Shown: one piece after another, positions 6,767 to 7,537 of the stretch | Layout of the letters: each line of letters begins with the position of its first letter | Position numbering within the stretch: position 1 is the first letter of the stretch | DNA from: a bacterium | GTDB taxonomy: Bacteria; Patescibacteriota; Minisyncoccia; Phycocordibacterales; Phycocordibacteraceae | DNA length: 64,000 nt | NCBI GenBank assembly: GCA_037200965.1 | Contig: JBBCGK010000001.1 | Coordinates: 64,001-128,000, forward strand | Direction: 5' to 3' | Program-made: the position numbers and the translations under genes | The notes under the pieces: generated by a model | Seen by the model: only the letters and a program-made list of their open reading frames with translations | What the model was told of the DNA's origin: nothing | The model's database searches: none

Positions 6767-7156
6767 ATGCCGAAAGACTATACGAAATGGCACGAGGTCA
6801 AGTCCGCGATCGAAGAACACAGGAATCCCCCGTTCTTCAACGAGCGCGAGGTATGGTGGAGCTCGCTCGGCGCGAATATCGGAACGGAACAGGACGGGAA
6901 GAACGCCCGGTTTGAGCGTCCGGTAATCATCGTGCGCAAATTCAATAAGGACTTGTTCTGGGGCGTACCAGCCACGCTCCAGAGCAAGGATGACGCATTC
7001 CATTTCGGCTTCATGCTTTCGGGAATCGAGCAGCGCGCGATCGTCTCGCAAATCCGCACATTGAGCGCGAAACGGCTCATCCGCCGCATCGGCAAGCTGC
7101 CCGAGCCGAAGTTCGCAGGACTTAAGGAGGCGATCGAATCCTTGATGAGGCGATAA
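6767..7156 (+). CDS. MazF/PemK-family toxin-fold protein (endoribonuclease-like), no adjacent antitoxin
   Basis: 129 aa; alignable by eye to E. coli MazF: GxEQxGxxRP, (C/G)VPxTxQSK...F...LSG and DQVKSI/SQIRTL...G segments; ATG sits 3 nt after the atpG stop. Confidence 0.65.
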   Translation: MPKDYTKWHEVKSAIEEHRNPPFFNEREVWWSSLGANIGTEQDGKNARFERPVIIVRKFNKDLFWGVPATLQSKDDAFHFGFMLSGIEQRAIVSQIRTLSAKRLIRRIGKLPEPKFAGLKEAIESLMRR

Positions 7157-7258
7157 ACGAAGCGAACCCCTTGCGGGGTTCTCGGGTGCCTAACGGCAAT
7201 TTACCCGGTCACTATATCCCCTCGGGGATGAAAAGTCAATTAACGACCGAAGCGAGGC

Positions 7259-7288
7259 TTGTGGACGGCACTCCGCATCGGGTATAAT
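7259..7288 (+). promoter_or_regulatory. sigma70-like promoter (TTGTGG-N18-TATAAT) driving a noncoding transcript
   Basis: -35 ttgtgg at 7259-7264 and -10 tataat at 7283-7288; no start codon within 9 nt downstream, unlike most promoters in this window. Confidence 0.5.
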
Positions 7289-7294
7289 CGTGTC

Positions 7295-7453
7295 ATACGC
7301 CTGATACACCGGCCGAACCGGAGGGATCAGGCTCGGGCGGACCGGGCGTTATCGGCACTAGCTCGGCCTGCCGACGTCGCGAAAGCGATACCCCGCGTGC
7401 CAAGCCTTCCCGCGAAGTTCGGAAGTAGCGGGGCGGGCGGGTAATCATACGAA
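7295..7453 (+). ncRNA. candidate structured RNA / long 5' leader upstream of atpD (identity unknown)
   Basis: about 160 nt between promoter and hairpin with several perfect local stems (gccugau...aucaggc around ccgg-ccgaa-ccgg; gucgc-gaaa-gcgau; cccgc...gcggg); the only ORF is Arg-rich, 61 aa, has no RBS and is judged spurious. Confidence 0.3.
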
Positions 7454-7488
7454 CACTATGGCCGCCCACGGGCGGCCATAGTGTTGTT
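7454..7488 (+). terminator. strong hairpin (13-bp perfect stem) with partial U-tract: terminator or attenuator before atpD
   Basis: cactatggccgcc-cacg-ggcggccatagtg followed by ttgtt; sits about 50 nt upstream of the atpD start. Confidence 0.5.
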
Positions 7489-7537
7489 AGGCAAATTGAT
7501 TGCAAATTTAGGGAAAAGAAAGTTTAATGCATACGAT

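Follow-up and report, generated by a model that had tools for sequence, protein, structure and literature searches.

A MazF/PemK-family gene and a convergent small RNA between atpG and atpD: a putative toxin and RNA antitoxin module in a candidate-phyla bacterium

In Bacillus subtilis, txpA/RatA and bsrG/SR4 are type I toxin-antitoxin systems with convergent antisense RNAs that overlap the toxin transcript at the 3' end. SymE/SymR and RalR/RalA are type I systems with nuclease-like toxins. The pemK RNA motif of Rfam is a 5'-untranslated region (UTR) element that lies upstream of pemK, on the same strand, in Firmicutes. In papers that cite Shen et al. 2016 (Mol Microbiol 101:909) for it (PMC10470494, PMC7826846), CjrA of Campylobacter jejuni 81-176 is an antisense RNA antitoxin; together with CjpT, a protein toxin, it makes up a type I system of plasmid pVir. 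The locus described here lies in a 64,000-nucleotide (nt) stretch of DNA (the window; positions 64,001 to 128,000 of contig JBBCGK010000001.1, assembly GCA_037200965.1) from a patescibacterium of the Phycocordibacteraceae, between the ATP synthase genes atpG and atpD. Positions 6767-7239 of the window probably constitute, judged from sequence comparison, a two-gene toxin and RNA antitoxin module made up of a MazF/PemK ribonuclease (RNase) and a convergent small RNA (sRNA) of ~50 nt. The locus belongs, as a distant representative from the candidate phyla, to a little-known family that pairs PemK toxins with sRNA antitoxins, and its site within an essential operon is unusual. Its features are as follows.

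6767-7156, plus strand: PemK/MazF-family open reading frame (ORF) of 129 amino acids (aa), putative toxin (Pfam PF02452, AlphaFold2 model, hhalign)
7239-7211, minus strand: sRNA promoter, TTGACT, 17 nt, TATAGT (10 of 12 consensus positions match)
7149-7208, minus strand: small-RNA gene, convergent with PemK, putative RNA antitoxin (covariance model R1, covariation, tetraloops)
7198-7187, minus strand: hairpin P1 of the sRNA
7181-7164, minus strand: P2, the intrinsic terminator hairpin GAACCCC-GCAA-GGGGUUC, then GCUUCGUUUA (terminator scan, single-sequence fold)

The protein encoded at 6767-7156 matches the Pfam family PemK_toxin (PF02452) with E=5.3e-9 and 36.7 bits, above the curated cut-off of 23.1. 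The AlphaFold2 model, made with 107 homologues, has a predicted local distance difference test score (pLDDT) of 94.7. In this model, a MazF core with the SH3-like barrel fold of MazF and Kid carries an extra N-terminal helix. The best PDB matches in Foldseek are MazF-mt1 of Mycobacterium tuberculosis and the MazF proteins of B. subtilis, S. aureus and E. coli (probability 1.0, template modelling score 0.65-0.72). The family profile aligns to E. coli MazF in hhalign at 95.7%, and the catalytic residues are kept, with R51 equivalent to E. coli R29 and T70 to T52. R51 does not vary among 107 sequences. The first-pass annotation had placed a MazF/PemK-type ORF here, starting 3 nt after the atpG stop; its coordinates are confirmed, and profile search and structure prediction agree on its identity.

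The protein is thus named as a genuine MazF/PemK-fold protein of a distinct subfamily and, by sequence, as a putative toxin of the MazF/PemK endoribonuclease family. Two features set the subfamily apart. The family-specific N-terminal helix (residues 5-18) is confidently modelled and conserved, and its residues W8 and K12 are invariant. The beta1-beta2 loop has a 5-residue insertion, adjoins the RNA-binding site and is the most conserved part of the subfamily. NCBIfam and PADLOC have no match for the protein. Among 1.84 billion proteins, the subfamily profile reaches only 3745 clusters at E<=1e-3; the subfamily comprises at least 613 protein clusters at E<=1e-30.

A consensus scan of 6600-7700 finds a single promoter (7239-7211) and a single terminator (7181-7164), both on the minus strand. 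As scanned on that strand, the terminator reads GAACCCCGCAAGGGGTTC then GCTTCGTTTA. The two signals delimit an sRNA gene directly 3' of PemK, and the earlier description of PemK as an orphan is therefore wrong. The predicted sRNA is ~50 nt long and runs from ~7204 to ~7153 on the minus strand, ending at the PemK stop codon. From its 5' end, it consists of UAAAU, P1, a CCCGA linker, P2 (the terminator) and a U-rich tail that reaches the PemK stop. The gene is recognised neither by annotation pipelines nor by Rfam. When the window and 6 other loci are scanned with Rfam (15) at E<=1, no family is found where the RNA lies, and a gathering-threshold scan of the whole window finds one transfer RNA and nothing else.

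Some PemK homologues have odd C-terminal tails, for example DPLRGPRVPNGNL. In the window, the DNA just 3' of the PemK stop reads NPLRGSRVPNGNL in a different frame, which pointed to conservation of nucleotides rather than of a peptide. In homologues P0002-P0010 and in ~22 of 47 loci, the PemK ORF is called 30-118 nt through the RNA gene. The resulting tails, which depend on the frame (DPLRGPRVPNGNL or GPLAGSSSA), are probably annotation artefacts; gene callers often continue the ORF across the RNA gene. That the RNA gene itself encodes a small peptide was considered and rejected; P1 varies in length by single bases, which alters the frame, and the two types of read-through tail are not in the same frame.

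The PemK subfamily occupies at least 557 loci in species-representative genomes, mostly of Patescibacteria (the candidate phyla radiation), and 80 related loci from such genomes, besides that of the window, form the comparison set used here. In nearly all of these 80 loci, the same element lies directly 3' of the PemK stop. Its layout on the minus strand is TTGAC(N16-18)TAnnnT, ~7 nt, (U)ACAAAU, P1, YCCGAG, a GC-rich P2, a G and a run of U. The covariance model R1 was built from 36 loci with a structure given by hand; RNAalifold on a plain MAFFT alignment gave P2 in part alone, since the stem lengths vary, and the hand-given structure solved this. In the 64-kb window, R1 matches once (7149-7208, minus strand, 49.7 bits, E=7e-14). 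Of the 80 other loci, 50 have a match at E<1e-3; in every case it lies on the strand opposite PemK and terminates at the PemK stop, and extra matches within a locus adjoin PemK paralogues. In most loci, the 3' end of the sRNA reaches 8-12 nt into the region of the stop codon.

The promoter and both helices are conserved as such. The strict promoter motif occurs at the same offset on the sRNA strand in 58 of 81 loci, compared with 4/81 for the complementary strand of that segment and with 6/81 and 9/81 upstream of PemK. The share of paired cells in the alignment is 89.7%; it is 74.9% after shuffling and does not exceed 66% with slid partners. Compensatory changes are present in 9 of 11 pairs, and both helices are supported. 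The minus-sense fold is the more stable one in 36 of 47 loci (p=9e-6), and 44 of 95 minus-sense loops are GNRA or UNCG tetraloops, versus 1 of 96 plus-sense loops. Because folding energies and tetraloops both favour the minus sense, this is taken as the transcribed strand. The count of G-U versus A-C mismatches (14 vs 12) did not separate the strands.

The association also holds in the reverse direction. A search with the 21-nt RNA motif alone recovers 34 metagenome contigs, of which 29 have a convergent PemK gene within 67 nt, 3 have a truncated PemK remnant and 2 are unclear. The PemK protein and the sRNA co-occur strictly, tested in both directions. A degenerate RNA pattern has 13 matches in viral contigs; none is accompanied by PemK or by a model match, and these were set aside as chance.

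The toxin gene itself is weakly provided with promoters. A consensus promoter precedes PemK in 8 of 76 cases, and PemK follows a co-directional gene, often closely, in 58 of 75. A strongly promoted RNA beside a weakly expressed protein fits a toxin-antitoxin module.

Copy number and integrity of the module vary among loci. Local amplification is seen in several Patescibacteria, with four PemK paralogues in 4 kb in L065, three in L033 and a tandem pair in L146. In L023, two RNA genes follow one PemK gene. In L101, L118 and L127, an intact sRNA gene (45-52 bits) stands beside the last ~45 codons of PemK, which are fused behind a UMP-kinase-like gene; here the toxin gene is lost and the RNA gene is kept. 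Arrays of paralogues, decay of some copies and sites on plasmids or prophages are features that toxin-antitoxin modules show.

No conserved neighbouring ORF is found in the 80 loci, where the neighbours differ in every locus; this agrees with the earlier statement that no antitoxin-sized ORF lies alongside PemK. Neighbours were clustered with BLAST at E<=1e-5 for ORFs of at least 40 aa within ~1.2 kb of PemK, settings that tiny or fast-evolving partners could escape. All that the clustering recovered were shadow ORFs lying within PemK and ORFs translated from the RNA gene. A type II arrangement is nevertheless conceivable, with a distal or a tiny, divergent protein antitoxin, or with a toxin that inhibits itself through its N-terminal helix (W8, K12) in the manner of the MazE tail. 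The sRNA would then be merely a terminator, an insulator or an expression regulator. The confidently modelled, conserved helix is in keeping with self-inhibition, and the clustering cut-offs, together with a search confined to the neighbourhood of PemK, leave space for a small or distant partner. At the locus, though, atpG lies upstream and the 381 nt downstream have no coding signal. The RNA also has a near-consensus promoter and conserved parts outside the terminator, which is more than an insulator needs. On balance, a protein antitoxin or self-inhibition is improbable.

The same PemK subfamily occurs in cultured Campylobacterota. Members are found on a Nitratiruptor plasmid (43% identity), on Helicobacter suis plasmids, on the C. 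jejuni prophage CJIE4 and on plasmid pVir of C. jejuni 81-176. The pVir protein, CJJ81176_pVir0047, aligns over its full length with the family profile (hhalign 99.5%, E=5e-23, 32% identity; BLASTP E=2e-18). In each Campylobacterota locus, an extended -10 promoter is directed convergently towards PemK, and a terminator hairpin lies immediately 3' of the stop codon. For pVir, a minus-strand start at 31119 was predicted from the sequence before the published sRNA table was consulted. This position is the published start of CJpv3, a Northern-positive sRNA of 77 nt on the pVir minus strand, 31119-31043 (Dugar et al. 2013, PMC3656092, Table S12). In the differential RNA sequencing of the same study, the start-site height is 16164 for CJpv3 versus 28 for the PemK gene's own start (PMC3656092). 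In the pVir pair, the RNA is ~500-fold above the start-site signal of the toxin gene. An sRNA stronger than its toxin is thus a matter of published expression for pVir; for the window it is predicted from promoter quality.

CjpT/CjrA is very probably the pair pVir0047/CJpv3. In the pVir plasmid of strain IA3902, a YafQ-type protein pair occupies the same slot instead. The abstract of Shen et al. 2016 reportedly assigns one system to each of the two strains, "respectively". If this identity holds, CjpT and the window protein are members of one PemK subfamily along their entire length, with the N-terminal helix and the enlarged beta1-beta2 loop in common. The layout is also common to both, with a single convergent sRNA, a strong promoter of its own and a terminator hairpin a few nt past the toxin stop. 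Neither toxin has a protein antitoxin beside it. The RNAs differ. CJpv3 has 77 nt and three hairpins, whereas the candidate-phyla RNA has ~50 nt, two hairpins and conserved motifs of its own, and the two are not alignable. Visual inspection of the Nitratiruptor RNA shows AUAAAU, P1 and P2 in the order of the candidate-phyla RNA. The hosts belong to different phyla, and the location is chromosomal, inside an essential operon, versus a C. jejuni plasmid. An obscure but experimentally studied Campylobacter plasmid system is hereby linked to a very large family in uncultured bacteria, for which a covariance model is supplied.

On the Nitratiruptor plasmid (L149), a 62-aa protein resembling ribbon-helix-helix proteins (MQDKRMTQKTIRVEDDLWDKF...) is encoded at 2955-3143, beyond the RNA promoter and upstream of a replication gene. 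It is probably a CopG-type repressor, and a role together with PemK is conceivable.

How the RNA would act is suggested by its position. The RNA would keep the toxin harmless. On the plus strand, there is no terminator between the PemK stop and the RNA gene, and therefore the toxin transcript, which is the atp transcript, should carry a ~55-nt perfect complement to the RNA. By the simplest route, pairing would lead to cleavage or decay of the duplex, with the type I logic of the Campylobacter system. A fall in the short-lived RNA would then release the RNase. Complementarity to the 3' flank is built in under this arrangement, and in ~22 of 47 loci the called ORF runs into the RNA gene. The RNA could also be bound directly by the protein, for which the unpaired motifs that are conserved (5' ACAAAU, CCGAG and the invariant G) would leave room.

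Several observations weigh against this interpretation of the module. The remaining loci, about one third, carry a variant RNA that R1 misses and that is visible by eye; the variant RNAs have no CCGAG motif. With filters off, R1 meaningfully matches none of the Campylobacterota loci (pVir-type, CJIE4, H. suis and Nitratiruptor), and the candidate-phyla and Campylobacter RNAs have their architecture in common, not their sequence. The identity of CjpT/CjrA is drawn from plasmid comparison and from what the abstract reportedly states. It is possible that CjpT/CjrA is instead CJpv2 (L154, pVir 25.2-25.7 kb) paired with a small hydrophobic ORF. Unannotated ORFs of this sort lie convergent to CJpv2, such as one of 41 aa at L154 1485-1610 on the minus strand, and such a combination looks like a classical type I pair. 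At the window locus, an adjacent MazE/PemI/AbrB or ribbon-helix-helix antitoxin gene is absent, no search having been aimed at a distal antitoxin in the rest of the genome. Finally, a purely antisense mechanism leaves the conserved unpaired motifs unexplained. These motifs are kept across proteins that are ~40% identical, the loops are stability tetraloops and not recognition loops, and the RNA head has no predicted pairing with the region of the toxin's translation start (mean z -0.1).

The same motifs raise another explanation, in which the RNA neutralises PemK directly, in type III fashion. The PemK dimer would bind, and perhaps nick, ACAAAU and CCGAG held between rigid hairpins; the RNA would be a pseudo-substrate and its complementarity to the toxin 3' UTR incidental. 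AAAU, CCGAG and the invariant G after P2 are conserved, the stems covary and the loops are merely stable tetraloops, and cis-antisense RNAs need no conservation of unpaired motifs. The RNA head, as stated, has no predicted partner at the toxin start. The most conserved part of the protein, the enlarged beta1-beta2 loop, is near the RNA-binding site, and intact RNA genes persist beside truncated toxin genes. However, the homologous Campylobacter system is called type I in the parts of the literature that describe it (PMC10470494, PMC7826846), the strict tail-to-tail position suggests that antisense geometry matters, and the binding is proposed from the conservation of motifs that include a CCGAG missing from the variant RNAs. 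Neutralisation without an antisense contribution is possible, if unlikely. The more specific form, in which the RNase is held by direct binding of the two-hairpin ~50-nt RNA with ACAAAU and CCGAG as pseudo-substrate, would combine type III chemistry with a type I layout; it is offered tentatively and is rather unlikely. If direct binding were true, this module would rank among the commonest of its sort, in a lineage largely without CRISPR.

A toxin and RNA antitoxin module with antisense control differs from each described class in at least one respect. MazEF and PemIK (Kid-Kis) of type II have the toxin fold, the Pfam family and the catalytic Arg and Thr in common with the window protein. The window locus has no adjacent MazE or PemI, its toxin has an extra N-terminal helix and a loop insertion, and its putative partner is an RNA. 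ToxIN, CptIN and TenpIN of type III likewise pair an RNA antitoxin with an endoribonuclease. Their RNAs are tandem repeats that lie upstream on the toxin's strand and are processed by the toxin, whereas here the RNA is single-copy, downstream and convergent, with a promoter of its own. The window toxin is outside the ToxN and AbiQ families, and PADLOC has no match for it; the fold of ToxN is said to resemble that of Kid/MazF (Blower et al. 2011). The type I pairs txpA/RatA and bsrG/SR4 share the tail-to-tail position and the combination of a strong antitoxin promoter with a weak toxin promoter. Type I toxins are typically small membrane peptides, whereas the toxin here is a 129-aa MazF-fold RNase, and the candidate-phyla RNA has unpaired motifs that are conserved across phyla. 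The pemK RNA motif is also a conserved RNA associated with pemK genes; it lies upstream on the same strand, whereas the candidate-phyla RNA lies downstream on the opposite strand and has no match in the Rfam scan at E<=1. Genes of this kind are annotated as "type II PemK/MazF family toxin", and the evidence presented here is that the whole subfamily pairs with an sRNA.

In the window, the module interrupts the F-type ATP synthase operon, which has the following genes.

2530-3375: atpB
3382-3609: atpE
3622-4065: atpF
4062-4301: delta-like ORF, 79 aa
4304-5851: atpA
5855-6763, plus strand: atpG, F1 gamma subunit (Pfam ATP-synt, E=1e-82; ORF list)
7538-8908, plus strand: atpD, starting MNGT... 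(Pfam; gene calls on the identical contig; starts compared with relatives)
8908-9156, plus strand: atpC (Pfam; gene calls)

The PemK start is separated from the atpG stop by 3 nt (CGC), and 381 nt of non-coding DNA separate the PemK stop from the atpD start at 7538, in line with the ~380 bp first estimated. The atpG-PemK-atpD arrangement is also present in three other assemblies of the same organism. In the three closest atpG relatives (82, 75 and 74% atpG identity), the operon and its flanking genes are the same, but the PemK insert is absent. Because the atpG-atpD junction in these relatives is 10-31 nt, the 774-nt segment 6764-7537 is, by sequence comparison, a lineage-specific insertion and not an atp component. 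The module would have been inserted in this lineage together with ~295 nt of unrelated structured sequence. Since there is no room for a promoter of its own, the PemK gene must, on its spacing, be transcribed with atpBEFHAG.

The position after atpG had led to the proposal that PemK is a domesticated regulator or accessory of atp expression, with a plus-strand promoter, RNA and hairpin at 7259-7490 as its partner. PemK does start 3 nt after atpG, and its two closest homologues (~70% identity, on metagenome contigs L086 and L087) also start directly after atpG, by 1-3 nt, and carry the small RNA. The spacer downstream is unusually structured as well (z -4.75). These points are outweighed by synteny, which largely refutes the proposal. 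No atp gene lies within 4 kb of PemK in any of the 80 other family loci (0/80), PemK is not kept between atpG and atpD in related genomes as a component of the F-type ATP synthase would be, and the next homologue (60% identity) has no linkage to atpG. In both atpG-linked relatives, the next gene is Ham1-like and not atpD. The spacer has no homologue in the loci examined. The family has paralogue arrays, remnants and plasmid or prophage copies, as toxin-antitoxin modules do. A role for PemK as an atp regulator is very improbable.

The gene after atpG-PemK-sRNA in L086 and L087 is Ham1/RdgB-like. The atp operon of these organisms seems to be split after gamma, and the contigs end before any view of atpDC.

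The sequence between the module and atpD includes two further features on the plus strand.

7259-7288, plus strand: candidate secondary promoter for atpDC, TTGTGG, 18 nt, TATAAT (read from the sequence)
7289-7537, plus strand: GC-rich, highly structured spacer or atpD leader (fold z-score)

The first-pass annotation had assigned this region a promoter at 7259-7288, a 13-bp hairpin at 7454-7483 and a transcript at 7295-7490 as the partner RNA of PemK. The promoter has a perfect -10 but a -35 with just 3 of 6 matches, falls below the threshold of the consensus scan and was not called; it is plausible as a secondary promoter of atpDC. The hairpin is real, with 15 perfect base pairs at 7452-7485 and not 13. 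The suggestion of an RNA antitoxin was right in kind but named the wrong RNA, as the partner is the minus-strand sRNA of ~7204-7153, and the plus-strand transcript has no homologue in any locus examined. The fold z-score of the spacer is -4.75, and 0 of 200 shuffles fold as well. In BLAST against all loci and the window, the spacer 7243-7537 finds itself only. It matches no Rfam family, and its ORFs have no Pfam match and no coding signal. By sequence, the spacer is unique to this organism among the loci examined.

The insertion between atpG and atpD implies that a convergent promoter and terminator are tolerable inside an essential operon, and it raises the question of how atpDC is expressed. 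If the module functions as proposed, the supply of toxin would follow expression of the atp operon in this organism. The RNA duplex could then also split the atp messenger RNA between gamma and beta.

The region downstream of atpC has further differences from the closest relative. At 9157-10615, the window has a second insertion relative to L093, of ~1.46 kb, with ORFs of 155, 158 and 112 aa that have no Pfam match. In L093, atpC is followed after 22 nt by a 76-aa gene and a flavodoxin-like gene. In the window, the flavodoxin-like gene is followed directly by a transposase-like ORF of 301 aa with N-terminal HTH_23 and HTH_38 domains (11518-12423). At this position, L093 has a YchF GTPase gene, and the NCBI contig of the organism ends at the 301-aa ORF. 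Two insertions and a transposase-like ORF suggest a locally rearranged region.

The 79-aa ORF at 4062-4301 is in the position of atpH (delta subunit) and has no OSCP/delta Pfam match. The ORF at the same position in relatives has 80-81 aa (121 aa in L095). In this clade, the delta subunit appears to be truncated or divergent.

Some contigs with the module are in bins labelled Gammaproteobacteria, Rickettsiales, Bdellovibrionales, Bacteroidetes or Sulfuricurvum. The contigs concerned are L012, L013, L016, L025, L032, L035, L043, L054, L060, L076, L079, L083, L084 and L085. Either these bins are contaminated or the module really occurs outside the Patescibacteria. The loci L025, L043 and L083 adjoin trpB/trpA-like genes.

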